DNA of 64,000 nucleotides, taken from contig OZ244851.1 of assembly GCA_965220925.1 (NCBI GenBank), forward strand, positions 4,410 to 68,409. Direction: 5' to 3'. The position numbers were made by a program, and so were the translations under genes. Shown here piece after piece: positions 3,485 to 64,000 of this stretch. How positions within the stretch are numbered: the first letter of the stretch is position 1; each line of letters starts with the position of its first letter. This DNA comes from Thermodesulfobacteriota bacterium. Lineage in GTDB: Bacteria; Desulfobacterota_D; UBA1144; Nemesobacterales; Nemesobacteraceae. The notes under the pieces were generated by a model. The model had not been told where the DNA came from, did not search any database, and saw nothing but the letters and a program-made list of their open reading frames with translations.

Positions 3485-4651
3485 TCATTTTTTCCGAACC
3501 GCTTCAAGCGGCGGTCGAGGAAGACCGATAAATTTCCATAAAACGAGGAAGAAAAGCCCGAATATAAGGGGCAAGGATTCATTAATTTCGTAAAGTATGC
3601 CTGAGGACATTCCACCGACGCAAGCTCCCATGAAATTCGCTAGATTGAAAAACCCCGCGAGAACTCCTCTGTTTTCAGAGGAGACCCTTTGCGTGACAAA
3701 CGCGGGAAGTATGGATTGAAATATGGAATGGCCGAGAAAAAACATTCCTCCCGCAAGGTAAAGGGTAAGGTTGTCGGGTTCTCGCAGCAGGTAAATCAAA
3801 AAAGCTGCTACAAGAAAAAAAAGTCCGAGATGTGTCGACTGTTTTAAAGTCTTTTTTCTTTCGGAAATCCTTATGTACGGATGAACCAGAAATGCGCTCG
3901 GGGCAAGTATTACAAGGTAAACGAACCAAAGATCGGCGACTTCCGTGCCGAGATTTCTCCAGTCAAGAGGATATATGAACAATATAAGGTTAAGAGTGAG
4001 AGAAGTTACGAAAGTTGAGGAAAAAATCCTTCCCACTTCCGGTTCTCTAAGTTTAAAAAGAAGATCCTTCCTCTCACCGGTCTTTTTCTTCGGGAGCTTG
4101 GGAAACAGGAAAAGAGTTACCGACCCGGCTACTAAACCTAGAATCGCAAGTATGAAAAAAAGGCTTTCGAAACCGAATTCGGCAGCCAGTATGGGACCGA
4201 TCACCAACGAGATAATAAAAGTTACCCCGACTATTATCCCAGTCAGCATGAAGGATTGCGCTCTTACCTCGTTTCTTGTGGAGTCTCCCAAGGTAGCTAT
4301 CGCGACTGCTCCTATGGCTCCGCTCCCCTGAACGGCCCTGGTTATTATCAGTTCCCAAATGGTATCCGCAAATGCGCAAAGAATGCTGCCTAGGCAAAAA
4401 ATAATTAATCCCGACAATATCACGGGCTTCCTTCCGAATCTGTCGCTTGCCATACCGAAAGGTATTTGCAGAAGACTTTGGGTTAGAGCGTATATTCCAA
4501 ACGCGATTCCCGCGGATGATATGGTGGCTCCCTCGTAGTTTGAGGCGTATACGCTGAAAACGGGAATTATAAGAAATATTCCAAGAAGTCTAAGCGATAT
4601 TATGGTTCCTATTATAAGAACGCAACGAAGTTCGTATCTGTTTAGGTTCAT
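3485..4651 (-). CDS. MFS family transporter
   Basis: 388-aa highly hydrophobic ORF with about 12 predicted TM segments and the MFS motif region GMASDRFGRK. Confidence 0.75.
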   Translation of the reverse strand: MNLNRYELRCVLIIGTIISLRLLGIFLIIPVFSVYASNYEGATISSAGIAFGIYALTQSLLQIPFGMASDRFGRKPVILSGLIIFCLGSILCAFADTIWELIITRAVQGSGAIGAVAIATLGDSTRNEVRAQSFMLTGIIVGVTFIISLVIGPILAAEFGFESLFFILAILGLVAGSVTLFLFPKLPKKKTGERKDLLFKLREPEVGRIFSSTFVTSLTLNLILFIYPLDWRNLGTEVADLWFVYLVILAPSAFLVHPYIRISERKKTLKQSTHLGLFFLVAAFLIYLLREPDNLTLYLAGGMFFLGHSIFQSILPAFVTQRVSSENRGVLAGFFNLANFMGACVGGMSSGILYEINESLPLIFGLFFLVLWKFIGLPRPPLEAVRKK

Positions 4652-4741
4652 ACGGTGTTTTCCCTGATTTTCTCAGTTCCCGCATAAATATAGCCATAAG
4701 AGACTAATTCAACGAAAAACCAAGTTGTATGTTAATTGCCT

Positions 4742-4770
4742 TTGACAATAATAAAACGCTGTAATATAAT
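4742..4770 (+). promoter_or_regulatory. Near-perfect sigma70-type promoter (TTGACA-17 bp-TATAAT) driving the outer-membrane protein gene
   Basis: TTGACA at 4742-4747, a 17-nt spacer, and TATAAT at 4765-4770. An RBS GGGAGGG sits at 4803-4809 and the ATG at 4817. Confidence 0.55.
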
Positions 4771-4816
4771 GGAAAAAAACAGAGGCGTATAAATTGTCTT
4801 TTGGGAGGGATGTCCA

Positions 4817-5797
4817 ATGAAATTGTTCTTTTGGCTTAGATTACCAAGTTTTGTGGCGATAATAGGTTTGTTTGTTGTTCTGGCTTCATCGAATTTTGGT
4901 TCGCCTCTGGCTTTTGCCGGGATGCCGGGTGAATCTGGGGAGGAAGCTGTTGAGGAACAGACCTTTACCGCTCCTGAACCTTCTTCGGAAATAGTGGAAG
5001 AACCGCAAAAGGTAGAAAAAGAAGACTCTCCTTCGATTCCCGGTAGATTTACTATAGGAGCTCGCGGCTCTTTAGGAATTCTGAGCGAATCCGACGCTTC
5101 CTCTGAGCCGATTAGTTTCCAGGGGTTTGATTACGGAAGTTTCGATGGTACAACCGATTTCAACGAAGGTTACGGTCTTAATTTCATGCTTGGTTACGCT
5201 CTTTCAAATGGTATGCGCTTTGAAGCCGAGGTAGGCTACCTCAATAGTGACTTGAATTATGTGGACGTAAATATGCCCGGGACTATAGTCGTTAATTCCG
5301 GGATTGACGCTTCCGGGAATCCTTGCCACGCTTCAAGCGCCGGATGTATTCCCTATGCCCAGCTTCCAGAAGCCGCTCGGGACGCTATTGATCAAGCCGC
5401 TTTGGGAAAGCAAGATCTCGACGGGAATGTTTCCGCGCTTACTTTCATGCTTAACGCTTACTATGATCTGGACTTGGGTGGTAATTTCGTTCCTTATGTG
5501 GGCACTGGAATAGGCGCGGCTCATCTGTCTGCCGAGATTGAGTCAGGAGAGGGAATTACCAAAGGAGATGTTCTTGTCGATGACGAGGATTACGTCCTCA
5601 TTTATCAGGTCGGTGCGGGAATGGGTTATAAAGTCGGCGATTTCGGCTTAGGAAAAGATATAACTTTAACTTTTGACTACCGCTATTTAGCTAGTTTTGA
5701 CGAAGCTAAATTTAAAGGATCCGTGACGGGTAATTTCCTTGAAAGTGAATATCAAGGACATTACATCGGCGGCGGGGTAAGACTCGGACTCCAGTAG
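4817..5797 (+). CDS. Outer-membrane beta-barrel protein (OmpA/OmpW-like porin family) with signal peptide
   Basis: 326-aa ORF with an N-terminal signal peptide and an acidic linker. Alternating hydrophobic/aromatic beta-strand pattern (YGLNFMLGYAL, FEAEVGYLN, TFMLNAYYDL, YQVGAGMGYKV, LTFDYRYL) and a C-terminal barrel-closing strand. Sits behind a consensus promoter. Confidence 0.6.
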   Translation: MKLFFWLRLPSFVAIIGLFVVLASSNFGSPLAFAGMPGESGEEAVEEQTFTAPEPSSEIVEEPQKVEKEDSPSIPGRFTIGARGSLGILSESDASSEPISFQGFDYGSFDGTTDFNEGYGLNFMLGYALSNGMRFEAEVGYLNSDLNYVDVNMPGTIVVNSGIDASGNPCHASSAGCIPYAQLPEAARDAIDQAALGKQDLDGNVSALTFMLNAYYDLDLGGNFVPYVGTGIGAAHLSAEIESGEGITKGDVLVDDEDYVLIYQVGAGMGYKVGDFGLGKDITLTFDYRYLASFDEAKFKGSVTGNFLESEYQGHYIGGGVRLGLQ

Positions 5798-8059: not shown

Positions 8060-8064
8060 GTAAG

Positions 8065-8415
<351 letters not shown>

Positions 8416-49663: not shown

Positions 49664-52600
49664 GTGGGTTGGAGTATTTTGCTTTACTCGAAAATTGTTT
49701 CGTCGATTAGACGTGGTTTCAGGTGCGTAGTCGACTCGTTTGTCGTATTTTCCCTTGTGGCAGTATTTCTTTTGTTTTTGACCTCGGGGGCTCAATACGC
49801 GAAAGCGCAGTCTGTCCCCGCCAAGCCTGATCATTTCACCGTGGGAGTGTCTGGACTCGGTTTTAACGGTCAAGCCCAATTAAACTGGAGAAACCCGAAT
49901 AACCCCAACATAACGAAGTATCAGGTACGGCATAAGGCTGGAACGAGCTTCACATCCTTAGATAGTTGGGTGGATATTCCAGGTAGCGGTGCCAGCACAA
50001 GGAATCATCTTATAACAAATCTGACATTTGGAACGACCTATGCGTTCCAGGTACGGGCGGTGAATGGTAACGGAAACGGAGCGGCGAGCGATGTGCTAAC
50101 GGCGGCACCGACGCCATTGCCAGGTCCCAATGCTGCTGGCAGATTTGTTCATACACCAACAAATGTGGTAGTGGGACTTCCCGGGTTTAACAAGGTCAGT
50201 GTCAGTTGGGATTGGGATGATCCCATATGTTCCGCGCTTTCCGGTGAGCCCTACCTATATGAGGTTGTATACAGGAAGACTACAGGGGGAGTAGCTTGGG
50301 ATACGAACGATAGGGAGACCGACGCAGGTTCTTACGAAATTTACAGCGGAGCAACAACACTAGTGTTTCCTCTGGATGGATTTTTTGGAGAACCAGTATT
50401 GGATCCAGGGGAGTACGAAATCAGCGTTAACTACGCTGGTGGTAATCCCCCATGCAAATCAGGACCTACTGTGGCCGCATTTGGTTCTTGGACCTCTCCG
50501 GTCAGGGTCATGGTACCGGAGCTGTTAAAACTAACAGGGACTCCAGTAACGTTAACGGAGGGAGGTAGTGCCGAGACGTTCAGTGTGGCGTTGAGTGAAG
50601 AGCCGACGGGTAATGTGACGGTAACGGTAACGAGCAATGACACGGGAGCGGCGACGGTATCACCGAGCAGTCTTACGTTCACGCCCACAAACTATTCAAC
50701 GGCACAGGACGTAACTGTAACGCCTGTAGACGATAACGACGCGTTGGATGAGAGTGTATCGGTAAGTTTGAACGCTTCGGGAGGCGGATACGACGGAGCG
50801 GGTAAATATGTAACAGTAACGGTAACGGATGATGAGGATACGACGTTAGAACTTACGGGAACGCCTGTAAGCGTAACGGAGGGCGGAGCGGCGGGAACGT
50901 TCAGCGTGAAGTTAAGCGCGGAGCCGACGGAGACAGTAACGGTAACGGTAACAAGCGACGACACGGGAGCGGCGACGGTATCACCCGATACGTTAACGTT
51001 CACAACTACAGACTACGCGACGACGCAGGATGTAACTGTAACGCCAGTAGACGATAACGACGCGTTGGATGAGAGTGTAACGGTAAGTCTTGACGCTACT
51101 GGAGGGGGCTATGACGACTCGGATGAAGATGTAGCTGTAACGGTGACGGATGATGAGGATACGACGTTAGAACTTACGGGTACGCCAGTAAGCCTAACGG
51201 AAGGCGGAGCGGCCGGAACGTTCAGTGTGAAGTTAAGCGCGGAGCCGACGGAGACAGTAACTGTAACGGTAACAAGTGACGACACGGGAGCGGCGACGGT
51301 ATCACCCGGAACATTGACGTTCACTGTGGCAAACTACGCGACCACGCAAGACGTAACTGTAACGCCGGTAGACGATAACGACGCGTTGGATGAGAGTGTA
51401 ACGGTAAGTCTTGACGCTACTGGAGGGGGCTATAACGACTCGGATGAAGATGTAGCTGTAACGGTAACGGATGATGAGGATACGACATTAGAACTTACGG
51501 GTACGCCTGTAAACATAACGGAGGGAGGAGCGGCCGGGACGTTCAGTGTGAAGTTAAGCGCGGAGCCAACGGCAACGGTAACGGTAACAGTAACAAGTGA
51601 CGACACAGGAGCGGCGACGGTCTCACCCGGAACATTGACGTTCACTGTGGCAAACTACGCGACCACTCAGGATGTAACTGTAACGCCGGTAGACGATAAC
51701 GACGCGTTGGACGAGAGCGTAACGGTAAGTCTTGACGCAAGTGGAGGAGGGTATAACGACTCGGATGAGGATGTAGCTGTAACGGTAACGGATGACGAGG
51801 ATACGACATTGACGCTAAGCGTCGCTACTGTGTCTGTAACGGAGGGAGGAGCGGCCGGGACGTTCAGTGTGAGTTTAAGCGCTGAGCCGACGGCAACAGT
51901 AACTGTAACGGTAACAAGTGACGACACAGGGGCGGCGACTGTATCACCCGGGACATTAACGTTCACAACTACAAACTACGCGACCACTCAGGATGTAACG
52001 GTAACGCCAGTGGATGATAACGACGCGTTGGATGAGAGCGTAACGGTAAGCCTTGACGCAAGTGGAGGGGGCTATAACGACTCGGATGAGGATGTAGCTG
52101 TAACGGTAACGGATGATGAGGATACGACGTTAGAACTTACGGGAACTCCTGTAAACATAACGGAGGGAGGAGCGGCCGGGACATTCAGTGTGAAGTTAAG
52201 CGCTGAGCCAACGGCAACAGTAACGGTAACGGTAACAAGCGACGACACGGGAGCGGCGACGGTATCACCCGGGACATTAACGTTCACGACTACAAACTAC
52301 GCGACGACGCAGGACGTAACTGTAACGCCAGTGGATGATAACGACGCGTTGGATGAGAATGTAACGGTAAGTCTTGACGCAAGTGGAGGAGGATATAACG
52401 ACTCGGATGAGGATGTAGCTGTAACGGTAACGGATGACGAGGATACGACATTGACGCTAAGCGTCGCTACTGTGTCTGTAACGGAGGGAGGAGCGGCCGG
52501 GACATTCAGTGTGAAGTTAAGCGCGGAGCCGACGGCAACAGTAACTGTAACGGTAACAAGTGACGACACAGGGGCGGCGACGGTATCACCCGGGACATTA

Positions 52601-55600
52601 ACGTTCACAACTACAAACTACGCGACCACTCAGGACGTAACTGTAACGCCGGTAGACGATAACGACGCGTTGGATGAGAGCGTAACGGTAAGCCTGGACG
52701 CAAGTGGAGGGGGATATAACGACTCGGATGAGGATGTAGCTGTAACGGTAACGGATGATGAGGATACGACGTTAGAACTTGCGGGTACGCCTGTAAGCGT
52801 AACGGAGGGAGGAGCGGCCGGGACATTCAGTGTGAAGTTAAGCGCTGAGCCAACGGCAACAGTAACGGTAACGGTAACAAGTGACGACACGGGAGCGGCG
52901 ACGGTCTCACCCGGAACATTAACGTTCACAACTACAAACTACGCGACCACTCAGGACGTAACTGTAACGCCAGTGGATGATAACGACGCGTTGGATGAGA
53001 ATGTAACGGTAAGCCTTGACGCAAGTGGAGGCGGGTATAACGACTCGGATGAGGATGTAGCTGTAACGGTAACGGATGACGAGGATACGACGTTAGAACT
53101 TACGGGAACTCCTGTAAACATAACGGAGGGAGGAGCGGCCGGGACATTCAGTGTGAAGTTAAGCGCGGAGCCAACGGCAACGGTAACTGTAACAGTAACA
53201 AGCGACGACACGGGAGCGGCGACGGTATCACCCGGAACATTAACGTTCACTGTGGCAAACTACGCGACCACACAGGACGTAACGGTAACGCCGGTAGATG
53301 ATAACGACGCGTTGGATGAGAATGTAACGGTAAGCCTTGACGCAAGTGGAGGCGGGTATAACGACTCGGATGAGGATATAGCTGTAACGGTAACGGATGA
53401 TGAGGATACGACGTTAGAACTTGCGGGTACGCCCGTAAACATAACGGAGGGAGGAGCGGCCGGGACGTTCAGTGTGAAGTTAAGCGCGGAGCCAACGGCA
53501 ACGGTAACTGTAACGGTAACGAGTGACGACACGGGAGCGGCGACGGTCTCACCCGGAACATTAACGTTCACAACTACAAACTACGCGACGACGCAGGACG
53601 TAACTGTAACGCCGGTAGATGATAACGACGCGTTGGATGAGAATGTAACGGTAAGTCTAGACGCAAGTGGAGGAGGATATAACGACTCGGATGAGGATGT
53701 AGCTGTAACGGTAACGGATGACGAGGATACGACATTGACGCTAAGCGTCGCTACTGTGTCTGTAACGGAGGGAGGAGCGGCCGGGACGTTCAGTGTGAGT
53801 TTAAGCGCTGAGCCTACGGCAACAGTAACTGTAACGGTAACAAGTGACGACACAGGGGCGGTGACGGTATCACCCGGGACATTAACGTTCACAACTACAA
53901 ACTACGCGACCACTCAGGACGTAACTGTAACGCCGGTAGATGATAACGACGCGTTGGATGAGAATGTAACGGTAAGCCTGGACGCAAGTGGAGGGGGGTA
54001 TAACGACTCGGATGAGGATGTAGCTGTAACGGTAACGGATGACGAGGATACGACGTTAGAACTTACGGGAACGCCTGTAAACATAACGGAGGGAGGAGCG
54101 GCCGGGACGTTTAGTGTGAAGTTAAGCGCTGAGCCAACGGCAACAGTAACTGTAACGGTAACAAGTGACGACACAGGGGCGGCGACGGTATCACCCGGAA
54201 CATTAACGTTCACAACTACAAACTACGCGACCACTCAGGACGTAACGGTAACGCCGGTAGATGATAACGACGCGTTGGATGAGAATGTAACGGTAAGTCT
54301 TGACGCAAGTGGAGGAGGGTATAACGACTCGGATGAGGATGTAGCTGTAACGGTAACGGATGACGAGGATACGACATTGACGCTAAGCGTCGCTACTGTG
54401 TCTGTAACGGAGGGAGGAGCGGCCGGGACGTTCAGTGTGAGTTTAAGCGCTGAGCCGACGGCAACAGTAACTGTAACGGTAACAAGTGACGACACAGGGG
54501 CGGCGACGGTATCACCCGGGACATTAACGTTCACAACTACAAACTACGCGACCACTCAGGATGTAACGGTAACGCCAGTGGATGATAACGACGCGTTGGA
54601 TGAGAGCGTAACGGTAAGCCTTGACGCAAGTGGAGGCGGGTATAACGACTCGGATGAGGATGTAGCTGTAACGGTAACGGATGATGAGGATACGACGTTA
54701 GAACTTACGGGAACTCCTGTAAACATAACGGAGGGAGGAGCGGCCGGGACATTCAGTGTGAAGTTAAGCGCTGAGCCAACGGCAACAGTAACTGTAACGG
54801 TAACAAGTGACGACACGGGAGCGGCGACGGTATCACCCGGGACATTGACGTTCACAACTACAAACTACGCGACGACGCAGGACGTAACTGTAACGCCGGT
54901 AGATGATAACGACGCGTTGGATGAGAATGTAACGGTAAGTCTTGACGCAAGTGGAGGAGGATATAACGACTCGGATGAGGATGTAGCTGTAACGGTAACG
55001 GATGACGAGGATACGACATTGACGCTAAGCGTCGCTACTGTGTCTGTAACGGAGGGAGGAGCGGCCGGGACATTCAGTGTGAGTTTAAGCGCTGAGCCGA
55101 CGGCAACAGTAACTGTAACGGTAACAAGTGACGACACAGGAGCGGCGACGGTCTCACCCGGGACATTAACGTTCACAACTACAAACTACGCGACCACTCA
55201 GGATGTAACGGTAACGCCAGTGGATGATAACGACGCGTTGGATGAGAGCGTAACGGTAAGCCTGGACGCAAGTGGAGGGGGATATAACGACTCGGATGAG
55301 GATGTAGCTGTAACGGTAACGGATGATGAGGATACGACGTTAGAACTTACGGGAACTCCTGTAACGATAGTAGAAGGAGGAAACGCGGGAGCGTTCAGCG
55401 TGAGGTTAAGCGCTGAGCCAACGGCAACAGTAACTGTAACAGTAACAAGCGACGACACTGGAGCGGCGACGGTATCACCCGGGACATTAACGTTCACAAC
55501 TACAAACTACGCGACGACGCAGGATGTAACGGTAACGCCGGTAGACGATAACGACGCGTTGGATGAGAATGTAACGGTAAGCCTGGACGCAAGTGGAGGG

Positions 55601-58600
55601 GGCTATAACGACTCGGATGAGGATGTAGCTGTAACGGTAACGGATGATGAGGATACGACATTGACGCTAAGCGTTGCTACTGTGTCTGTAACGGAGGGAG
55701 GAGCGGCCGGGACGTTCAGTGTGAGTTTAAGCGCGGAGCCAACGGCAACGGTAACGGTAACGGTAACAAGCGACGACACAGGAGCGGCGACTGTATCACC
55801 CGGGACATTAACGTTCACAACTACAAACTATGCGACCACTCAGGACGTAACTGTAACGCCGGTAGATGATAACGACGCGTTGGATGAGAATGTAACGGTA
55901 AGCCTTGACGCAAGTGGAGGCGGGTATAACGACTCGGATGAGGATGTAGCTGTAACGGTAACGGATGATGAGGATACGACGTTAGAACTTACGGGAACGC
56001 CTGTAAACATAACGGAGGGAGGAGCGGCCGGGACATTCAGTGTGAAGTTAAGCGCGGAGCCAACGGCAACGGTAACGGTAACGGTAACAAGTGACGACAC
56101 AGGGGCGGCGACGGTATCACCCGGAACATTAACGTTCACAACTACAAACTACGCGACCACTCAGGACGTAACGGTAACGCCGGTAGATGATAACGACGCG
56201 TTGGATGAGAATGTAACGGTAAGCCTTGACGCAAGTGGAGGCGGGTATAACGACTCGGATGAGGATGTAGCTGTAACGGTAACGGATGATGAGGATACGA
56301 CGTTAGAACTTACGGGAACTCCTGTAACGATAGTAGAAGGAGGAAACGCGGGAACGTTCAGCGTGAAGTTAAGCGCTGAGCCAACGGCAACGGTAACGGT
56401 AACGGTAACAAGCGACGACACTGGAGCGGCGACTGTCTCACCCGGGACATTAACGTTCACAACTACAAACTACGCGACGACGCAGGACGTAACTGTAACG
56501 CCGGTAGATGATAACGACGCGTTGGATGAGAATGTAACGGTAAGCCTAGACGCAAGTGGAGGGGGGTATAACGACTCGGATGAGGATGTAGCTGTAACGG
56601 TAACGGATGACGAGGATACGACATTGACGCTAAGCGTCGCTACTGTGTCTGTAACGGAGGGAGGAGCGGCCGGGACATTCAGTGTGAAGTTAAGCGCGGA
56701 GCCAACGGCAACAGTAACTGTAACGGTAACAAGCGACGACACAGGGGCGGCGACGGTATCACCCGGGACATTAACGTTCACAACTACAAACTACGCGACG
56801 ACGCAGGACGTAACTGTAACGCCGGTAGATGATAACGACGCGTTGGATGAGAATGTAACGGTAAGTCTAGACGCAAGTGGAGGAGGATATAACGACTCGG
56901 ATGAGGATGTAGCTGTAACGGTAACGGATGACGAGGATACGACATTGACGCTAAGCGTCGCTACTGTGTCTGTAACGGAGGGAGGAGCGGCCGGTACGTT
57001 CAGTGTGAGTTTAAGCGCTGAGCCTACGGCAACAGTAACTGTAACGGTAACAAGCGACGACACAGGGGCGGCGACGGTCTCACCCGGAACATTGACGTTC
57101 ACTGTGGCAAACTACGCGACCACTCAGGACGTAACTGTAACGCCAGTGGATGATAACGACGCGTTGGATGAGAATGTAACGGTAAGCCTGGACGCAAGTG
57201 GAGGAGGATATAACGACTCGGATGAGGATGTAGCTGTAACGGTAACGGATGATGAGGATACGACGTTATCGTTAAGTGGAACTCCGGTAACTGTCGTAGA
57301 GGGAGGAAACGCGGGAACGTTCAGCGTGAGGTTAAGCGCGGAGCCAACGGCAACGGTAACGGTAACGGTAACAAGCGACGACACAGGAGCGGCGACGGTC
57401 TCACCCGGAACATTGACGTTCACAACTACAAACTACGCGACGACGCAGGACGTAACTGTAACGCCGGTAGATGATAACGACGCGTTGGATGAGAGCGTAA
57501 CGGTAAGCCTTGACGCAAGTGGAGGGGGGTATAACGACTCGGATGAGGATGTATCGGTAACGGTAACGGATGACGAGGATACGACGTTAGAACTTACGGG
57601 AACTCCTGTAAACATAACGGAGGGAGGAGCGGCCGGGACGTTCAGTGTGAAGTTAAGCGCTGAGCCAACGGCAACAGTAACTGTAACGGTAACAAGTGAC
57701 GACACGGGGGCGGCGACGGTATCACCCGGGACATTAACGTTCACAACTACAAACTACGCGACGACGCAGGACGTAACGGTAACGCCAGTGGACGATAACG
57801 ACGCGTTGGATGAGAGCGTAACGGTAAGCCTGGACGCAAGTGGAGGAGGATATAACGACTCGGATGAGGATGTAGCTGTAACGGTAACGGATGATGAGGA
57901 TACGACGTTAGAACTTACGGGAACTCCTGTAAACATAACGGAGGGAGGAGCGGCCGGGACGTTCAGTGTGAAGTTAAGCGCTGAGCCAACGGCAACGGTA
58001 ACTGTAACGGTAACAAGTGACGACACGGGGGCGGCGACGGTATCACCCGGGACATTAACGTTCACAACTACAAACTACGCGACGACGCAGGACGTAACGG
58101 TAACGCCAGTGGACGATAACGACGCGTTGGATGAGAATGTAACGGTAAGTCTAGACGCAAGTGGAGGGGGGTATAACGACTCGGATGAGGATGTAGCTGT
58201 AACGGTAACGGATGATGAGGATACGACGTTAGAACTTACGGGTACTCCTGTAAACATAACGGAGGGAGGAGCGGCCGGGACGTTCAGTGTGAAGTTAAGC
58301 GCGGAGCCAACGGCAACGGTAACGGTAACGGTAACAAGTGACGACACAGGGGCGGCGACGGTATCACCCGGAACATTAACGTTCACAACTACAAACTACG
58401 CGACCACTCAGGACGTAACGGTAACGCCGGTAGACGATAACGACGCGTTGGATGAGAGTGTAACGGTAAGTCTTGACGCAAGTGGAGGAGGGTATAACGA
58501 CTCGGATGAGGATGTAGCTGTAACGGTAACGGATGACGAGGATACGACATTGACGCTAAGCGTCGCTACTGTGTCTGTAACGGAGGGAGGAGCGGCCGGG

Positions 58601-61600
58601 ACGTTCAGTGTGAGTTTAAGCGCTGAGCCGACGGCAACAGTAACTGTAACGGTAACAAGTGACGACACAGGGGCGGTGACGGTATCACCCGGGACATTAA
58701 CGTTCACAACTACAAACTACGCGACCACTCAGGATGTAACGGTAACGCCAGTGGATGATAACGACGCGTTGGATGAGAGCGTAACGGTAAGCCTTGACGC
58801 AAGTGGAGGGGGCTATAACGACTCGGATGAGGATGTAGCTGTAACGGTAACGGATGATGAGGATACGACGTTAGAACTTACGGGAACTCCTGTAAACATA
58901 ACGGAGGGAGGAGCGGCCGGGACATTCAGTGTGAAGTTAAGCGCTGAGCCAACGGCAACAGTAACGGTAACGGTAACAAGTGACGACACGGGAGCGGCGA
59001 CGGTATCACCCGGGACATTAACGTTCACAACTACAAACTACGCGACGACGCAGGACGTAACTGTAACGCCGGTAGATGATAACGACGCGTTGGATGAGAA
59101 TGTAACGGTAAGTCTAGACGCAAGTGGAGGGGGCTATAACGACTCGGATGAGGATGTAGCTGTAACGGTAACGGATGACGAGGATACGACGTTAGAACTT
59201 ACGGGTACGCCTGTAAACATAACGGAGGGAGGAGCGGCCGGGACGTTTAGTGTGAAGTTAAGCGCTGAGCCTACGGCAACGGTAACTGTAACAGTAACAA
59301 GCGACGACACGGGAGCGGCGACGGTATCACCCGGGACATTAACGTTCACTGTGGCAAACTACGCGACGACGCAGGACGTAACTGTAACGCCAGTGGATGA
59401 TAACGACGCGTTGGATGAGAATGTAACGGTAAGCCTTGACGCAAGTGGAGGAGGATATAACGACTCGGATGAGGATGTAGCTGTAACGGTAACGGATGAT
59501 GAGGATACGACGTTAGAACTTACGGGAACTCCTGTAACGATAGTAGAAGGAGGAAACGCGGGAGCGTTCAGCGTGAGGTTAAGCGCTGAGCCGACGGCAA
59601 CAGTAACGGTAACGGTAACAAGTGACGACACGGGAGCGGCGACGGTCTCACCCGGGACATTAACGTTCACAACTACAAACTACGCGACCACTCAGGATGT
59701 AACGGTAACGCCGGTAGACGATAACGACGCGTTGGATGAGAATGTAACGGTAAGCCTGGACGCAAGTGGAGGAGGATATAACGACTCGGATGAGGATGTA
59801 GCTGTAACGGTAACGGATGACGAGGATACGACGTTAGAACTTACGGGTACGCCTGTAAGCGTAACGGAGGGAGGAGCGGCCGGGACGTTTAGTGTGAGGT
59901 TAAGCGCTGAGCCAACGGCAACAGTAACTGTAACGGTAACAAGCGACGACACGGGAGCGGCGACGGTATCACCCGGAACATTAACGTTCACAACTACAAA
60001 CTACGCGACCACTCAGGACGTAACGGTAACGCCAGTAGACGATAACGACGCGTTGGATGAGAATGTAACGGTAAGCCTGGACGCAAGTGGAGGGGGATAT
60101 AACGACTCGGATGAGGATGTAGCTGTAACGGTAACGGATGATGAGGATACGACGTTAGAACTTACGGGAACTCCTGTAACGATAGTAGAAGGAGGAAACG
60201 CGGGAACGTTCAGTGTGAGTTTAAGCGCGGAGCCAACGGCAACAGTAACTGTAACAGTAACAAGCGACGACACTGGAGCGGCGACTGTCTCACCCGGGAC
60301 ATTAACGTTCACAACTACAAACTACGCGACGACGCAGGACGTAACTGTAACGCCAGTAGACGATAACGACGCGTTGGATGAGAATGTAACGGTAAGCCTT
60401 GACGCAAGTGGAGGGGGCTATAACGACTCGGATGAGGATGTAGCTGTAACGGTAACGGATGATGAGGATACGACATTATCGTTAAGTGGAACTCCGGTAA
60501 CTGTCGTAGAGGGAGGAAACGCGGGAACGTTCAGCGTGAGGTTAAGCGCTGAGCCTACGGCAACAGTAACGGTAACAGTAACAAGTGACGATACAGGAGC
60601 GGCGACGGTCTCACCCGGGACATTGACGTTCACAACTACAAACTACGCGACGACGCAGGACGTAACTGTAACGCCGGTAGATGATAACGACGCGTTGGAT
60701 GAGAATGTAACGGTAAGCCTTGACGCAAGTGGAGGAGGATATAACGACTCGGATGAGGATGTAGCTGTAACGGTAACGGATGACGAGGATACGACATTGA
60801 CGCTAAGCGTCGCTACTGTGTCTGTAACGGAGGGAGGAGCGGCCGGGACATTCAGTGTGAGTTTAAGCGCGGAGCCGACGGCAACAGTAACTGTAACGGT
60901 AACAAGTGACGACACAGGGGCGGCGACGGTATCACCCGGGACATTAACGTTCACAACTACAAACTACGCGACCACTCAGGATGTAACTGTAACGCCAGTG
61001 GATGATAACGACGCGTTGGATGAGAGCGTAACGGTAAGCCTTGACGCAAGTGGAGGGGGGTATAACGACTCGGATGAGGATGTAGCTGTAACGGTAACGG
61101 ACGATGAGGATACGACGTTAGAACTTACGGGTACTCCTGTAAACATAACGGAGGGAGGAGCGGCCGGTACGTTCAGTGTGAGTTTAAGCGCGGAGCCAAC
61201 GGCAACGGTAACGGTAACGGTAACAAGCGACGACACGGGAGCGGCGACGGTATCACCCGGGACATTGACGTTCACAACTACAAACTACGCGACGACGCAG
61301 GACGTAACTGTAACGCCGGTAGATGATAACGACGCGTTGGATGAGAATGTAACGGTAAGTCTTGACGCAAGTGGAGGAGGATATAACGACTCGGATGAGG
61401 ATGTAGCTGTAACGGTAACGGATGACGAGGATACGACATTGACGCTAAGCGTCGCTACTGTGTCTGTAACGGAGGGAGGAGCGGCCGGGACATTCAGTGT
61501 GAGTTTAAGCGCGGAGCCGACGGCAACAGTAACTGTAACGGTAACAAGTGACGACACAGGGGCGGCGACGGTCTCACCCGGGACATTAACGTTCACAACT

Positions 61601-64000
61601 ACAAACTACGCGACCACTCAGGATGTAACTGTAACGCCAGTGGATGATAACGACGCGTTGGATGAGAGCGTAACGGTAAGCCTTGACGCAAGTGGAGGGG
61701 GGTATAACGACTCGGATGAGGATGTAGCTGTAACGGTAACGGATGACGAGGATACGACGTTAGAACTTACGGGAACTCCTGTAACGATAGTAGAAGGAGG
61801 AAACGCGGGAGCGTTCAGCGTGAGGTTAAGCGCTGAGCCAACGGCAACAGTAACTGTAACAGTAACAAGCGACGACACGGGAGCGGCGACGGTATCACCC
61901 GGAACATTAACGTTCACAACTACAAACTACGCGACCACTCAGGACGTAACGGTAACGCCAGTGGATGATAACGACGCGTTGGATGAGAATGTAACGGTAA
62001 GCCTGGACGCAAGTGGAGGGGGATATAACGACTCGGATGAGGATGTAGCTGTAACGGTAACGGATGATGAGGATACGACGTTAGAACTTACGGGAACTCC
62101 TGTAACGATAGTAGAAGGAGGAAACGCGGGAACGTTCAGTGTGAGTTTAAGCGCGGAGCCAACGGCAACAGTAACTGTAACAGTAACAAGCGACGACACT
62201 GGAGCGGCGACTGTCTCACCCGGGACATTAACGTTCACAACTACAAACTACGCGACCACTCAGGACGTAACTGTAACGCCAGTAGACGATAACGACGCGT
62301 TGGATGAGAATGTAACGGTAAGCCTTGACGCAAGTGGAGGCGGGTATAACGACTCGGATGAGGATGTAGCTGTAACGGTAACGGATGATGAGGATACGAC
62401 ATTATCGTTAAGTGGAACTCCGGTAACTGTCGTAGAGGGAGGAAACGCGGGAACGTTCAGCGTGAGGTTAAGCGCGGAGCCAACGGCAACGGTAACGGTA
62501 ACAGTAACAAGTGACGATACAGGAGCGGCGACGGTATCACCCGGGACATTGACGTTCACAACTACAAACTACGCGACGACGCAGGACGTAACTGTAACGC
62601 CGGTAGATGATAACGACGCGTTGGATGAGAATGTAACGGTAAGTCTAGACGCAAGTGGAGGAGGATATAACGACTCGGATGAGGATGTAGCTGTAACGGT
62701 AACGGATGATGAGGATACGACGTTAGAACTTGCGGGTACGCCTGTAAGCGTAACGGAGGGAGGAGCGGCCGGGACGTTCAGTGTGAAGTTAAGCGCGGAG
62801 CCAACGGCAACGGTAACTGTAACGGTAACAAGCGACGACACGGGAGCGGCGACGGTCTCACCCGGAACATTGACGTTCACAACTACAAACTACGCGACGA
62901 CGCAGGACGTAACGGTAACGCCGGTAGACGATAACGACGCGTTGGATGAGAATGTAACGGTAAGCCTTGACGCAAGTGGAGGCGGGTATAACGACTCGGA
63001 TGAGGATGTAGCTGTAACGGTAACGGATGATGAGGATACGACGTTAGAACTTACGGGAACGCCTGTAACGATAGTAGAAGGAGGAAACGCGGGAGCGTTC
63101 AGCGTGAGGTTAAGCGCTGAGCCGACGGCAACGGTAACGGTAACAGTAACAAGTGACGACACAGGGGCGGCGACGGTATCACCCGGGACATTAACGTTCA
63201 CAACTACAAACTACGCGACGACGCAGGACGTAACTGTAACGCCAGTGGATGATAACGACGCGTTGGATGAGAATGTAACGGTAAGCCTGGACGCAAGTGG
63301 AGGCGGATATAACGACTCGGATGAGGATGTAGCTGTAACGGTAACGGATGATGAGGATACGACGTTAGAACTTACGGGTACGCCTGTAAACATAACGGAG
63401 GGAGGAGCGGCCGGGACGTTCAGTGTGAGGTTAAGCGCGGAGCCAACGGCAACGGTAACGGTAACGGTAACAAGTGACGACACAGGGGCGGCGACGGTCT
63501 CACCCGGGACATTAACGTTCACAACTACAAACTACGCGACCACTCAGGACGTAACTGTAACGCCGGTAGATGATAACGACGCGTTGGATGAGAATGTAAC
63601 GGTAAGCCTGGACGCAAGTGGAGGGGGCTATAACGACTCGGATGAGGATGTAGCTGTAACGGTAACGGATGATGAGGATACGACGTTAGAACTTACGGGA
63701 ACTCCTGTAACGATAGTAGAAGGAGGAAACGCGGGAACGTTCAGTGTGAGTTTAAGCGCTGAGCCTACGGCAACAGTAACTGTAACAGTAACAAGCGACG
63801 ACACTGGAGCGGCGACTGTCTCACCCGGGACATTAACGTTCACAACTACAAACTACGCGACCACTCAGGACGTAACTGTAACGCCAGTAGACGATAACGA
63901 CGCGTTGGATGAGAATGTAACGGTAAGCCTTGACGCAAGTGGAGGCGGGTATAACGACTCGGATGAGGATGTAGCTGTAACGGTAACGGATGATGAGGAT
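49664..64000 (+). CDS. Giant secreted/surface repeat protein, 3'-truncated by the window: signal peptide, 2 fibronectin type III-like domains, then about 42 tandem 107-aa acidic Calx-beta-like domains (putative Ca2+-binding adhesin stalk)
   Basis: Hand translation of the plus-strand frame (codon positions with coordinate mod 3 = 2) is open from the TAG at 49643-49645 to the window end. Candidate starts are GTG 49664 or TTG 49679 after a GGAG RBS. The N-terminus is positively charged then hydrophobic (KIVSSIRRGFRCVVDSFVVFSLVAVFLLFLTSGAQYAKAQS). An FN3-like domain follows (LNWRNPNNPNITKYQVRHK...TTYAFQVRAVNGNG). From about 50515 comes the repeat: TLELTGTPVNITEGGAAGTFSVKLSAEPTATVTVTVTSDDTGAATVSPGTLTFTTTNYATTQDVTVTPVDDNDALDENVTVSLDASGGGYNDSDEDVAVTVTDDEDT. 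The ORF track does not list it because it has no in-window stop codon. Confidence 0.8.
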   Translation, partial: MGWSILLYSKIVSSIRRGFRCVVDSFVVFSLVAVFLLFLTSGAQYAKAQSVPAKPDHFTVGVSGLGFNGQAQLNWRNPNNPNITKYQVRHKAGTSFTSLDSWVDIPGSGASTRNHLITNLTFGTTYAFQVRAVNGNGNGAASDVLTAAPTPLPGPNAAGRFVHTPTNVVVGLPGFNKVSVSWDWDDPICSALSGEPYLYEVVYRKTTGGVAWDTNDRETDAGSYEIYSGATTLVFPLDGFFGEPVLDPGEYEISVNYAGGNPPCKSGPTVAAFGSWTSPVRVMVPELLKLTGTPVTLTEGGSAETFSVALSEEPTGNVTVTVTSNDTGAATVSPSSLTFTPTNYSTAQDVTVTPVDDNDALDESVSVSLNASGGGYDGAGKYVTVTVTDDEDTTLELTGTPVSVTEGGAAGTFSVKLSAEPTETVTVTVTSDDTGAATVSPDTLTFTTTDYATTQDVTVTPVDDNDALDESVTVSLDATGGGYDDSDEDVAVTVTDDEDTTLELTGTPVSLTEGGAAGTFSVKLSAEPTETVTVTVTSDDTGAATVSPGTLTFTVANYATTQDVTVTPVDDNDALDESVTVSLDATGGGYNDSDEDVAVTVTDDEDTTLELTGTPVNITEGGAAGTFSVKLSAEPTATVTVTVTSDDTGAATVSPGTLTFTVANYATTQDVTVTPVDDNDALDESVTVSLDASGGGYNDSDEDVAVTVTDDEDTTLTLSVATVSVTEGGAAGTFSVSLSAEPTATVTVTVTSDDTGAATVSPGTLTFTTTNYATTQDVTVTPVDDNDALDESVTVSLDASGGGYNDSDEDVAVTVTDDEDTTLELTGTPVNITEGGAAGTFSVKLSAEPTATVTVTVTSDDTGAATVSPGTLTFTTTNYATTQDVTVTPVDDNDALDENVTVSLDASGGGYNDSDEDVAVTVTDDEDTTLTLSVATVSVTEGGAAGTFSVKLSAEPTATVTVTVTSDDTGAATVSPGTLTFTTTNYATTQDVTVTPVDDNDALDESVTVSLDASGGGYNDSDEDVAVTVTDDEDTTLELAGTPVSVTEGGAAGTFSVKLSAEPTATVTVTVTSDDTGAATVSPGTLTFTTTNYATTQDVTVTPVDDNDALDENVTVSLDASGGGYNDSDEDVAVTVTDDEDTTLELTGTPVNITEGGAAGTFSVKLSAEPTATVTVTVTSDDTGAATVSPGTLTFTVANYATTQDVTVTPVDDNDALDENVTVSLDASGGGYNDSDEDIAVTVTDDEDTTLELAGTPVNITEGGAAGTFSVKLSAEPTATVTVTVTSDDTGAATVSPGTLTFTTTNYATTQDVTVTPVDDNDALDENVTVSLDASGGGYNDSDEDVAVTVTDDEDTTLTLSVATVSVTEGGAAGTFSVSLSAEPTATVTVTVTSDDTGAVTVSPGTLTFTTTNYATTQDVTVTPVDDNDALDENVTVSLDASGGGYNDSDEDVAVTVTDDEDTTLELTGTPVNITEGGAAGTFSVKLSAEPTATVTVTVTSDDTGAATVSPGTLTFTTTNYATTQDVTVTPVDDNDALDENVTVSLDASGGGYNDSDEDVAVTVTDDEDTTLTLSVATVSVTEGGAAGTFSVSLSAEPTATVTVTVTSDDTGAATVSPGTLTFTTTNYATTQDVTVTPVDDNDALDESVTVSLDASGGGYNDSDEDVAVTVTDDEDTTLELTGTPVNITEGGAAGTFSVKLSAEPTATVTVTVTSDDTGAATVSPGTLTFTTTNYATTQDVTVTPVDDNDALDENVTVSLDASGGGYNDSDEDVAVTVTDDEDTTLTLSVATVSVTEGGAAGTFSVSLSAEPTATVTVTVTSDDTGAATVSPGTLTFTTTNYATTQDVTVTPVDDNDALDESVTVSLDASGGGYNDSDEDVAVTVTDDEDTTLELTGTPVTIVEGGNAGAFSVRLSAEPTATVTVTVTSDDTGAATVSPGTLTFTTTNYATTQDVTVTPVDDNDALDENVTVSLDASGGGYNDSDEDVAVTVTDDEDTTLTLSVATVSVTEGGAAGTFSVSLSAEPTATVTVTVTSDDTGAATVSPGTLTFTTTNYATTQDVTVTPVDDNDALDENVTVSLDASGGGYNDSDEDVAVTVTDDEDTTLELTGTPVNITEGGAAGTFSVKLSAEPTATVTVTVTSDDTGAATVSPGTLTFTTTNYATTQDVTVTPVDDNDALDENVTVSLDASGGGYNDSDEDVAVTVTDDEDTTLELTGTPVTIVEGGNAGTFSVKLSAEPTATVTVTVTSDDTGAATVSPGTLTFTTTNYATTQDVTVTPVDDNDALDENVTVSLDASGGGYNDSDEDVAVTVTDDEDTTLTLSVATVSVTEGGAAGTFSVKLSAEPTATVTVTVTSDDTGAATVSPGTLTFTTTNYATTQDVTVTPVDDNDALDENVTVSLDASGGGYNDSDEDVAVTVTDDEDTTLTLSVATVSVTEGGAAGTFSVSLSAEPTATVTVTVTSDDTGAATVSPGTLTFTVANYATTQDVTVTPVDDNDALDENVTVSLDASGGGYNDSDEDVAVTVTDDEDTTLSLSGTPVTVVEGGNAGTFSVRLSAEPTATVTVTVTSDDTGAATVSPGTLTFTTTNYATTQDVTVTPVDDNDALDESVTVSLDASGGGYNDSDEDVSVTVTDDEDTTLELTGTPVNITEGGAAGTFSVKLSAEPTATVTVTVTSDDTGAATVSPGTLTFTTTNYATTQDVTVTPVDDNDALDESVTVSLDASGGGYNDSDEDVAVTVTDDEDTTLELTGTPVNITEGGAAGTFSVKLSAEPTATVTVTVTSDDTGAATVSPGTLTFTTTNYATTQDVTVTPVDDNDALDENVTVSLDASGGGYNDSDEDVAVTVTDDEDTTLELTGTPVNITEGGAAGTFSVKLSAEPTATVTVTVTSDDTGAATVSPGTLTFTTTNYATTQDVTVTPVDDNDALDESVTVSLDASGGGYNDSDEDVAVTVTDDEDTTLTLSVATVSVTEGGAAGTFSVSLSAEPTATVTVTVTSDDTGAVTVSPGTLTFTTTNYATTQDVTVTPVDDNDALDESVTVSLDASGGGYNDSDEDVAVTVTDDEDTTLELTGTPVNITEGGAAGTFSVKLSAEPTATVTVTVTSDDTGAATVSPGTLTFTTTNYATTQDVTVTPVDDNDALDENVTVSLDASGGGYNDSDEDVAVTVTDDEDTTLELTGTPVNITEGGAAGTFSVKLSAEPTATVTVTVTSDDTGAATVSPGTLTFTVANYATTQDVTVTPVDDNDALDENVTVSLDASGGGYNDSDEDVAVTVTDDEDTTLELTGTPVTIVEGGNAGAFSVRLSAEPTATVTVTVTSDDTGAATVSPGTLTFTTTNYATTQDVTVTPVDDNDALDENVTVSLDASGGGYNDSDEDVAVTVTDDEDTTLELTGTPVSVTEGGAAGTFSVRLSAEPTATVTVTVTSDDTGAATVSPGTLTFTTTNYATTQDVTVTPVDDNDALDENVTVSLDASGGGYNDSDEDVAVTVTDDEDTTLELTGTPVTIVEGGNAGTFSVSLSAEPTATVTVTVTSDDTGAATVSPGTLTFTTTNYATTQDVTVTPVDDNDALDENVTVSLDASGGGYNDSDEDVAVTVTDDEDTTLSLSGTPVTVVEGGNAGTFSVRLSAEPTATVTVTVTSDDTGAATVSPGTLTFTTTNYATTQDVTVTPVDDNDALDENVTVSLDASGGGYNDSDEDVAVTVTDDEDTTLTLSVATVSVTEGGAAGTFSVSLSAEPTATVTVTVTSDDTGAATVSPGTLTFTTTNYATTQDVTVTPVDDNDALDESVTVSLDASGGGYNDSDEDVAVTVTDDEDTTLELTGTPVNITEGGAAGTFSVSLSAEPTATVTVTVTSDDTGAATVSPGTLTFTTTNYATTQDVTVTPVDDNDALDENVTVSLDASGGGYNDSDEDVAVTVTDDEDTTLTLSVATVSVTEGGAAGTFSVSLSAEPTATVTVTVTSDDTGAATVSPGTLTFTTTNYATTQDVTVTPVDDNDALDESVTVSLDASGGGYNDSDEDVAVTVTDDEDTTLELTGTPVTIVEGGNAGAFSVRLSAEPTATVTVTVTSDDTGAATVSPGTLTFTTTNYATTQDVTVTPVDDNDALDENVTVSLDASGGGYNDSDEDVAVTVTDDEDTTLELTGTPVTIVEGGNAGTFSVSLSAEPTATVTVTVTSDDTGAATVSPGTLTFTTTNYATTQDVTVTPVDDNDALDENVTVSLDASGGGYNDSDEDVAVTVTDDEDTTLSLSGTPVTVVEGGNAGTFSVRLSAEPTATVTVTVTSDDTGAATVSPGTLTFTTTNYATTQDVTVTPVDDNDALDENVTVSLDASGGGYNDSDEDVAVTVTDDEDTTLELAGTPVSVTEGGAAGTFSVKLSAEPTATVTVTVTSDDTGAATVSPGTLTFTTTNYATTQDVTVTPVDDNDALDENVTVSLDASGGGYNDSDEDVAVTVTDDEDTTLELTGTPVTIVEGGNAGAFSVRLSAEPTATVTVTVTSDDTGAATVSPGTLTFTTTNYATTQDVTVTPVDDNDALDENVTVSLDASGGGYNDSDEDVAVTVTDDEDTTLELTGTPVNITEGGAAGTFSVRLSAEPTATVTVTVTSDDTGAATVSPGTLTFTTTNYATTQDVTVTPVDDNDALDENVTVSLDASGGGYNDSDEDVAVTVTDDEDTTLELTGTPVTIVEGGNAGTFSVSLSAEPTATVTVTVTSDDTGAATVSPGTLTFTTTNYATTQDVTVTPVDDNDALDENVTVSLDASGGGYNDSDEDVAVTVTDDED
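50515..64000 (+). repeat. Tandem array of about 42 near-identical 321-bp coding repeats (first unit 328 bp, then 41 units in exact 321-bp register), continuing beyond the window end
   Basis: Minus-strand artefact ORFs all begin MNVNVPG, and their start coordinates fall every 321 bp exactly (51003, 51324, ... 63843). Direct reading shows units differing only at a few cassette positions. Confidence 0.95.

Follow-up and report, generated by a model that had tools for sequence, protein, structure and literature searches.

The DNA analysed here is a 64,000-nt window of contig OZ244851.1 (assembly GCA_965220925.1, Thermodesulfobacteriota bacterium), and the element in question is a giant open reading frame (ORF) at its 3' end that carries a long tandem array of 321-bp units; all coordinates are positions within the window. 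From 49646 onwards the reading frame stays open up to the end of the window; counted from a GTG at 49664, most likely the gene start, it spans 4,779 codons with no stop codon or frameshift. On the 808-kb source contig (ena:ERZ26695579:ctg120052_7.48x_l), the ENA gene call gives a product of 10,887 aa; given that call, the gene end would lie ~18.3 kb past the window. From the same number of residues we estimate a protein mass of ~1.1 MDa, and a product of this length makes a total of up to ~95-99 units possible, with at least 42 in any case. The gene is laid out as follows.

49664 to 64000, plus strand: the 5' 14.3 kb of the giant ORF, which runs past the window end.
49664 to 49807, plus strand: Sec-type signal peptide, recognised by eye from a basic n-region, a hydrophobic core FVVFSLVAVFLLFL and an AKA/QS cleavage motif (the slash marks the cut).
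49874 to 50101, plus strand: fibronectin type III (Fn3) domain, Pfam PF00041, E 9.7e-11, 42.2 bits (cutoff 25).
50144 to 50521, plus strand: a second, divergent Fn3-like domain, its pattern seen by eye, which aligns with the Fn3 domain of a homolog, P0004, and matches no Pfam family at E<=1.
50522 to 50842, plus strand: unit 0, a diverged edge repeat with 73 differences from the array consensus in 321 positions.
50843 to 64000, plus strand: units 1-41 of the 321-bp array, each encoding a 107-aa acidic immunoglobulin-like (Ig-like) β-sandwich domain.

Tandem Repeats Finder reported a single array from 50548 to 64000, with a period of 321 and 41.9 copies. From 50843 onwards, 40 complete units are followed by a 41st that is 3 nt short at the window end, and all 41 translate in frame, free of indels and stop codons; slicing and translation of the array in this way bore out the exact 321-bp register that a first-pass annotation of the sequence had reported from that position. 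Unit 0 lies upstream of the array start given in that annotation. Divergence is greatest at the 5' edge, where unit 0 differs from the consensus at 73 positions and units 1-2 at 30-32, a classical feature of array edges under concerted evolution. In base composition, the array stands at 53% GC against 45-49% elsewhere in the window, and its coding strand is purine-loaded, with a GC skew of about +0.2 and an AT skew of about +0.27.

The uniformity of the array lies at the level of the protein and is kept by strong purifying selection. The units had been described as homogenised at the DNA level and for the most part nucleotide-identical, a description that did not survive alignment: 89 of the 321 columns vary, 60 of these at codon position 3, and pairwise DNA identity averages 90.6% (range 82.6-99.4%), with no two units identical, at a mean protein identity of 93.9%. 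Outside the first 69 nt, in the part that we call the body, 51 of 252 columns are variable, almost all of them synonymously, such that the body is 98.3% identical in protein but 94.0% identical in DNA. An identical 84-aa body is encoded by 23 of the 40 complete units, and yet the body DNA is different in all 40. By the Nei-Gojobori method, the body (codons 24-107) has a synonymous divergence (dS) of 0.247 and a nonsynonymous divergence (dN) of 0.0092, for a dN/dS of 0.037; the corresponding values for the first 23 codons are 0.545, 0.172 and 0.315. The second-site amino-acid variants noted in the first pass are real, 5 units reading FTVANY and 13 of 40 reading DESV.

Silent variants are mostly common to several units. 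Among 44 fourfold-degenerate body sites scored across the 40 units, 22 show no variation, 18 segregate a minor allele present in 5-24 units and 4 have rare alleles, giving a bimodal site-frequency spectrum. Private alleles number 19 in 12.8 kb, of which 9 fall in units 1-2 and 10 in the 38 interior units. Alleles of intermediate frequency are strongly over-represented, with a Tajima-like D of +1.7 for the body (units 3-40) and +2.4 for the first 69 nt. These variants are an old stock that the units share and that has been reshuffled among them. Along the unit, silent polymorphism is concentrated in columns 78-210 and thins out in the final third, where columns 268-311 contain no common variant in any unit, fourfold sites included; this 44-nt block lies 12 nt upstream of the first 69 nt of the next unit, columns 312-321 lying between, with a common variant at 312. 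As to codons, valine is almost always encoded by GTA, which is invariant at 8 of 10 body valine codons, threonine codons alternate among ACG, ACA, ACT and ACC, and transversions are about as many as transitions among the common silent variants. The positions within the array to which the text refers are these.

51110 to 51153, plus strand: the 44-nt block without a common variant, in its example from unit 1 (columns 268-311 of all units).
51806 to 51874, plus strand: the 69-nt cassette region, in its B example from unit 4 (columns 1-69 of every unit).
51485 (A), 55337 (C), 57263 (D) and 50843 (E), plus strand: start positions of the other cassette examples.
51941 to 52239, plus strand: the longest exact internal repeat, 299 bp, equal to 58682-58980 and spanning the borders of units 4/5 and 25/26.

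The first 69 nt of each unit form a cassette. All five of the N-terminal versions proposed in the first pass, A to E, are present, and their order along the array (E,E,A,B,...,C,A,C) matched letter for letter. A check for scattered substitutions came out in favour of recurring DNA blocks: columns 1-36 fall into 16 haplotypes, compared with about 41 after column-wise permutation, and 10 of 11 B units carry one and the same 36-nt B block, the C block being shared likewise by 7 of 8. Between blocks A and B, 21 of 36 nt are different, and no site-wise A/B hybrids are found among the cassettes, which are clean haplotypes. They are nonetheless modular, in that residues 1-12, 13-20 and 21-23 recombine; version C, for instance, is found with K, S or R at residue 23. 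Neighbouring units showed no avoidance of the same cassette class, with 7 same-class adjacencies against 9.1 expected (P = 0.27).

Within the cassette, residues L2, L4, V9, E13, F20, V22 and L24 are fixed, and variable positions alternate with the fixed hydrophobic ones. In an AlphaFold2 model, the cassette covers the strands at residues 2-5, 9-12 and 18-24 (strands A, A' and B), an arrangement in which the variable residues probably form one exposed face. We considered whether the cassette is merely the least constrained part of the domain and rejected this, as the family-wide entropy of residues 1-23 (1.90) is close to that of the rest (1.86). The clustering of amino-acid variation in this region is therefore a feature of this array.

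Linkage among variable sites differs between the two parts of the unit. Inside the cassette, r2 stays at 0.34-0.44 out to 20 bp, whereas outside it r2 is 0.03-0.07 beyond 5 bp, against a sampling floor (1/n) of 0.025. Linkage in the body is significant only between a few sites 1-4 bp apart, and other pairs at a spacing of 3 bp are already unlinked. All four gametes occur in 94-100% of pairs of body sites separated by more than 5 bp, and the Hudson-Kaplan minimum number of recombination events (Rm) is at least 35 within a single 321-bp unit. The picture of a mosaic of a few shuffled cassettes thus holds for the first strands, while the rest of the unit is a finer mosaic than had been read. Taken by itself, this lack of linkage in the body would also be compatible with recurrent mutation at a hypermutable subset of its silent sites; the bimodal site-frequency spectrum and the long identical tracts shared among units argue against such an origin.

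These tracts are in clear excess. Identical stretches of at least 100 bp number 114, against 4.6 under a column-permutation null and 40 under a null that preserves the cassette blocks; for stretches of at least 200 bp, the count is 8 against 0 and 0.03, respectively. The units linked by long identical tracts lie 2-28 positions from each other, and the tracts extend across unit borders. The longest, the 299-bp repeat whose two copies lie 21 units apart, is the footprint of a recent copy event, and no identical tract exceeds the length of one unit. Four-gamete incompatibility together with an excess of tracts between non-adjacent units is the pattern by which gene conversion is recognised. Likewise, the units are far closer to each other than to outside homologs, the best of which reach at most 57% protein identity (33-69% for two-unit homolog segments), as is characteristic of concerted evolution.

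Shuffling among units could also come from unequal crossing-over or replication slippage, by which whole units are duplicated or deleted with one hybrid unit formed per event. Such a process would be expected to leave duplicated blocks of several units, neighbours more alike than distant units, and copy-number polymorphism, the last corresponding to the length variation between strains that the first-pass annotation predicted. Some such duplication process must have built the array originally, and it would account for the strictly kept register and for 5' edge units that are more diverged than interior ones. Also in its favour, runs of A-B-A-B make cassettes two units apart somewhat more alike (13.0 differences) than those of adjacent units (16.4). 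This weak effect, however, is seen in the cassettes alone: a search for higher-order repeats or for similarity that depends on distance along the array found mean body distance flat across lags 1-20, and the distance of a unit pair (i, j) is hardly correlated with that of the next pair along (i+1, j+1; r = 0.10). The window contains no multi-unit duplicated block, its longest exact repeat being shorter than one unit. We also ran a toy Moran-type simulation, in which 100 units started from two founder haplotypes with sites spaced as in the array, as a feasibility check and not a fit. In it, unit-length events fixed most sites before linkage at 6-10 bp was lost, and with 300-bp tracts just 3-5 sites were still polymorphic at linkage decay, most units being near-identical. 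Linkage was lost at 5-10 bp with 12-26 of 26 sites polymorphic only if mean tracts were ~100 bp or less. As the main process, unequal crossing-over therefore appears unlikely, and the absence of multi-unit tracts, the flat lags, the low neighbouring-pair correlation and the simulation together favour conversion.

Short-tract, in-register gene conversion combined with strong purifying selection is the best explanation of the array, and one in which we place moderate confidence. Where the first-pass annotation had proposed ongoing unequal crossing-over or gene conversion, the shuffling among units is upheld by the four-gamete and tract data, and crossing-over is not. Under gene conversion, the units would evolve as a single well-mixed pool, in which any unit can receive from any other, in register, patches that range from tens of bp to ~300 bp. 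Such intragenic copying may proceed through heteroduplex formed between misaligned units and then repaired in patches. It would spread and reshuffle a fixed stock of old, mostly synonymous variants, while purifying selection would hold the 84-aa body nearly identical in every unit. The first 69 nt would behave as a few deeply diverged alleles that recombine at a few internal joints and otherwise move as blocks, because the divergence between A and B is too great for internal exchange.

Four points weigh against gene conversion as the full account. Decay of linkage with distance is visible only in the cassette, body linkage being gone at 6 bp. The description of exchange as ongoing draws solely on the mutation-free tracts of 200-299 bp. 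The excess of intermediate-frequency alleles is not predicted by a simple neutral model of conversion and drift, and requires a small number of diverged founder units or else balancing selection in some form. Lastly, the name of the source contig suggests a coverage of about 7.5x.

A static old array, in which silent sites diverged after an ancient amplification and the protein was kept by purifying selection with no exchange, would explain why silent divergence is substantial (dS 0.25-0.55), why every unit is distinct and why no distance structure runs along the array. The strand types LTGTPV and LSxxTV, moreover, both occur in the 52%-identical homolog P0004 of another assembly. Such a history nevertheless predicts many private alleles and slight variation at all fourfold sites. 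Half of the fourfold sites are instead invariant and 18 are at intermediate frequency, private alleles among the 38 interior units are few, and the 8 identical tracts of at least 200 bp between distant units have a near-zero probability if nothing was copied. We regard a static array as distinctly unlikely.

It is similarly improbable that the array is held in a selected state of identical domains and deliberately non-identical DNA, with silent and cassette diversity kept at intermediate frequency. Were this so, the diversity would be more than a passive outcome of conversion and drift, and could stabilise an array of ~100 units against recombinational collapse, limit misfolding between neighbours or diversify an exposed patch. 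The related proposal, that DNA heterogeneity and cassette diversity are themselves the targets of selection, with silent differences acting as a natural codon scrambling against recombinational collapse and alternative first strands acting against misfolding between neighbouring domains or to vary an exposed patch, seems to us more doubtful still. Consistent with it are the positive D values, the 40 different DNAs behind near-identical protein bodies, the confinement of cassette variation to alternating and presumably outward-facing positions between fixed residues, and the N-terminal 23 residues, which across the family are no less constrained than the rest. Long identical tracts are, however, in excess and not avoided, adjacent units are no more different than distant ones, with same-class cassettes adjacent about as often as expected, and the dN/dS of the cassette (0.32) is not above 1.

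Least probable is an assembly or polishing artefact, in which reads of different units piled up and a site-wise majority produced chimeric units, although the 32-kb gene does exceed typical HiFi read length. The contig name would fit a ~7.5x, metaMDBG-style HiFi assembly, if naming and pipeline are as in PMC12648040, but in these very units the cassettes form clean haplotypes and A/B hybrids are absent, the 4,779 codons contain no frameshift or stop, all units differ and share no exact repeat above 299 bp, such that multi-kb reads should place uniquely, a majority vote would drive units to the consensus and not to 50/50 alleles, and an array of 7 units in a metagenome-assembled genome (MAG), for which the pipeline may differ, was assembled with zero differences.

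To place the repeat domain structurally, we modelled two units with AlphaFold2 from 32 aligned homolog segments. The model comprises two β-sandwiches, with a predicted local distance difference test (pLDDT) score of 97. Foldseek retrieved generic Ig-like folds, including ASH/hydin-type domains of the ciliary central apparatus, the Calx-beta protein NCX1 CBD12 and the S-layer protein SbsC; a search for sequence relatives with a solved structure found none, the best E-value being 0.18. Among Pfam families, only fn3_6 (PF17766) matched a three-unit segment, and marginally, at 30.4 bits (cutoff 26.4) over profile positions 30-75 of 99; on the N-terminal segment it scored 25.9 bits, under that cutoff. 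Pfam gave no support for membership of the Calx-beta family, with no hit to PF03160 at E<=1 on three units. Each unit has 20 Asp and Glu residues against 1 Lys or Arg, for an isoelectric point of 4.05, and residues E13, D71 and D103 show little or no variation among family members. If the extender regions of giant adhesins are a guide (PMC7493085, PMC4083281), the units may form a Ca2+-stiffened stalk. The repeat family is common, though poorly annotated: it is widespread, with 666 hits, several of them from the sponge symbionts AqS1, AqS3 and Thioalkalivibrio sp. HK1.

The array has the same architecture as region II of the Marinomonas primoryensis adhesin (MpAFP, also MpIBP) and, by this likeness, probably the same role. 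In both, tandem Ig-like β-sandwiches of ~104-107 aa follow one another in exact register, ~100 of them in the adhesin and possibly here; the array accounts for the bulk of a protein that exceeds 1 MDa, its units are highly acidic, its flanking edge repeats are diverged and its presumed role is that of a Ca2+-stiffened extender (PMC4083281, PMC7493085 and PMC3492233, on region II and on extenders of giant repeats-in-toxin (RTX) adhesins). The two differ in their DNA, with 120 DNA-identical repeats in the Marinomonas adhesin and, in the array described here, 90.6% identity, every unit unique and variants shuffled. A long array of ~100-aa Ig-like extender domains is likewise the hallmark shared with giant adhesins of the RTX and type I secretion system (T1SS) class, of the MpIBP and LapA type, although the units have no sequence match to solved bacterial Ig-like (BIg) extender domains.

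RTX adhesins are T1SS substrates with C-terminal nonapeptide repeats and secretion signals, and those of this type coordinate Ca2+ in their inter-domain linkers. The giant protein differs from them in beginning with a Sec-type signal peptide, as judged by eye, followed by Fn3, where such adhesins have an N-terminal retention module and no cleavable Sec signal, and because of its Sec signal it does not resemble a T1SS substrate. By analogy with these adhesins, the array would on balance serve as the extender, or stalk, of a Sec-exported giant surface protein, and the protein as a whole is likely a cell-surface or host-contact structure.

A second set of likenesses is with the 'eukaryotic-like' repeat proteins of marine and sponge-associated bacteria, built of Calx-beta, cadherin-like and Fn3 domains, with which the units share the β-sandwich, a conserved Glu and clusters of Asp. 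Homologs of the units occur in the Amphimedon symbionts AqS1 and AqS3 and in Thioalkalivibrio sp. HK1, one of them named at source as a Calx-beta protein. Unlike true Calx-beta domains, the units are without a match to the Pfam model at the threshold given above, and their likeness to NCX1 CBD12 is at the level of the fold only.

As in concerted evolution by gene conversion, polymorphisms are shared in mosaic combinations and edge units escape homogenisation. Unlike the typical case, homogenisation is incomplete, silent sites approach linkage equilibrium at spacings as short as 3-6 bp, the site-frequency spectrum has two modes and new mutations are very few. Mosaics made by short in-register patches copied between cassettes, with variable segments beside conserved ones, are known from Neisseria pilE/pilS and Borrelia vlsE, where silent donor loci feed one expression site and give rise to clonal antigenic variants. 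The array differs from these systems in that donors and recipients are units of one ORF, all expressed together. No silent donor copy was found within positions 1-50200 of the window, where blastn and tblastn recovered no unit-like sequence.

Concerted evolution by gene conversion is textbook knowledge, and this array is of value mainly because its history can be read with unusual clarity. Assemblies usually collapse or break giant repeat proteins, and the evolution inside their arrays is rarely visible; here, every unit can be distinguished and the array forms a natural record of intragenic exchange. It indicates that selection can keep ~40 domains uniform in protein while their DNA is ~6-10% divergent, that exchange patches may be much shorter than a unit and that strongly diverged first-strand cassettes may act as recombination-proof blocks. 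The Marinomonas adhesin and this array stand at opposite extremes, and between them they frame how variously bacterial extender arrays can evolve.

In addition, the locus marks a lineage-specific, Sec-exported protein of ~1.1 MDa in Candidatus Dadabacteria, with a repeat family common to sponge-symbiont genomes. To our knowledge, Candidatus Dadabacteria is a candidate phylum without cultured members. The polynucleotide phosphorylase of the window is 84-88% identical to its nearest relatives, of which the named ones are 'Candidatus Dadabacteria' MAGs. The flanking genes are housekeeping genes, namely nusA, infB, rbfA, truB, rpsO, pnp, miaA, ccmH and otsAB, and three related Dadabacteria contigs lack the giant gene at the corresponding site. 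Two of them (L021 and L022) have an aldo-keto reductase gene directly after otsAB. The third (L017) also lacks otsAB and carries instead genes for a ResIII helicase-domain protein, an N6/N4 DNA-methyltransferase and a toxin-antitoxin pair (HepT/nucleotidyltransferase). As these three relatives keep the same synteny without the giant gene, the gene is a lineage-specific insertion. A scan of Genome Taxonomy Database (GTDB) genomes found N-terminal relatives of at most 54% identity and no comparable array, only short and more diverged ones, and in Joint Genome Institute (JGI) metagenomes a 27-mer of the conserved block had no exact match, nor did any close relative come to light there.

The best N-terminal homolog, P0004, is 52% identical to the giant protein. 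Directly downstream of it, at 3520-5148 of its contig (L020), is a gene for a 542-aa protein with Fn3 and an Autotransporter beta-domain (PF03797); coverage of this contig is only 3x, and P0004 and the 542-aa gene may be one split gene. From the sequence of this neighbour, the family could be type V-secreted; type V autotransporters combine an N-terminal Sec signal, such as the one read in the giant protein, with a C-terminal β-barrel translocator. An Rfam scan of the window found nothing in the array, its sole match being a transfer-messenger RNA (tmRNA) gene.

8064 to 8415, plus strand: full-length tmRNA gene, Rfam RF00023, 183.5 bits.

The proteins that flank the giant gene are identical on a second contig of 1,564,412 bp, with NCBI and ENA as its sources. 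The array of 7 units mentioned above belongs to a Gammaproteobacteria MAG (L006, positions 1-2051), has a period of 279 bp and encodes a different domain, He_PIG-like by its sequence pattern. Its units show no DNA differences among them, unlike the shuffled 321-bp array, and the same MAG also has a distant relative of the N-terminal domains of the giant protein.

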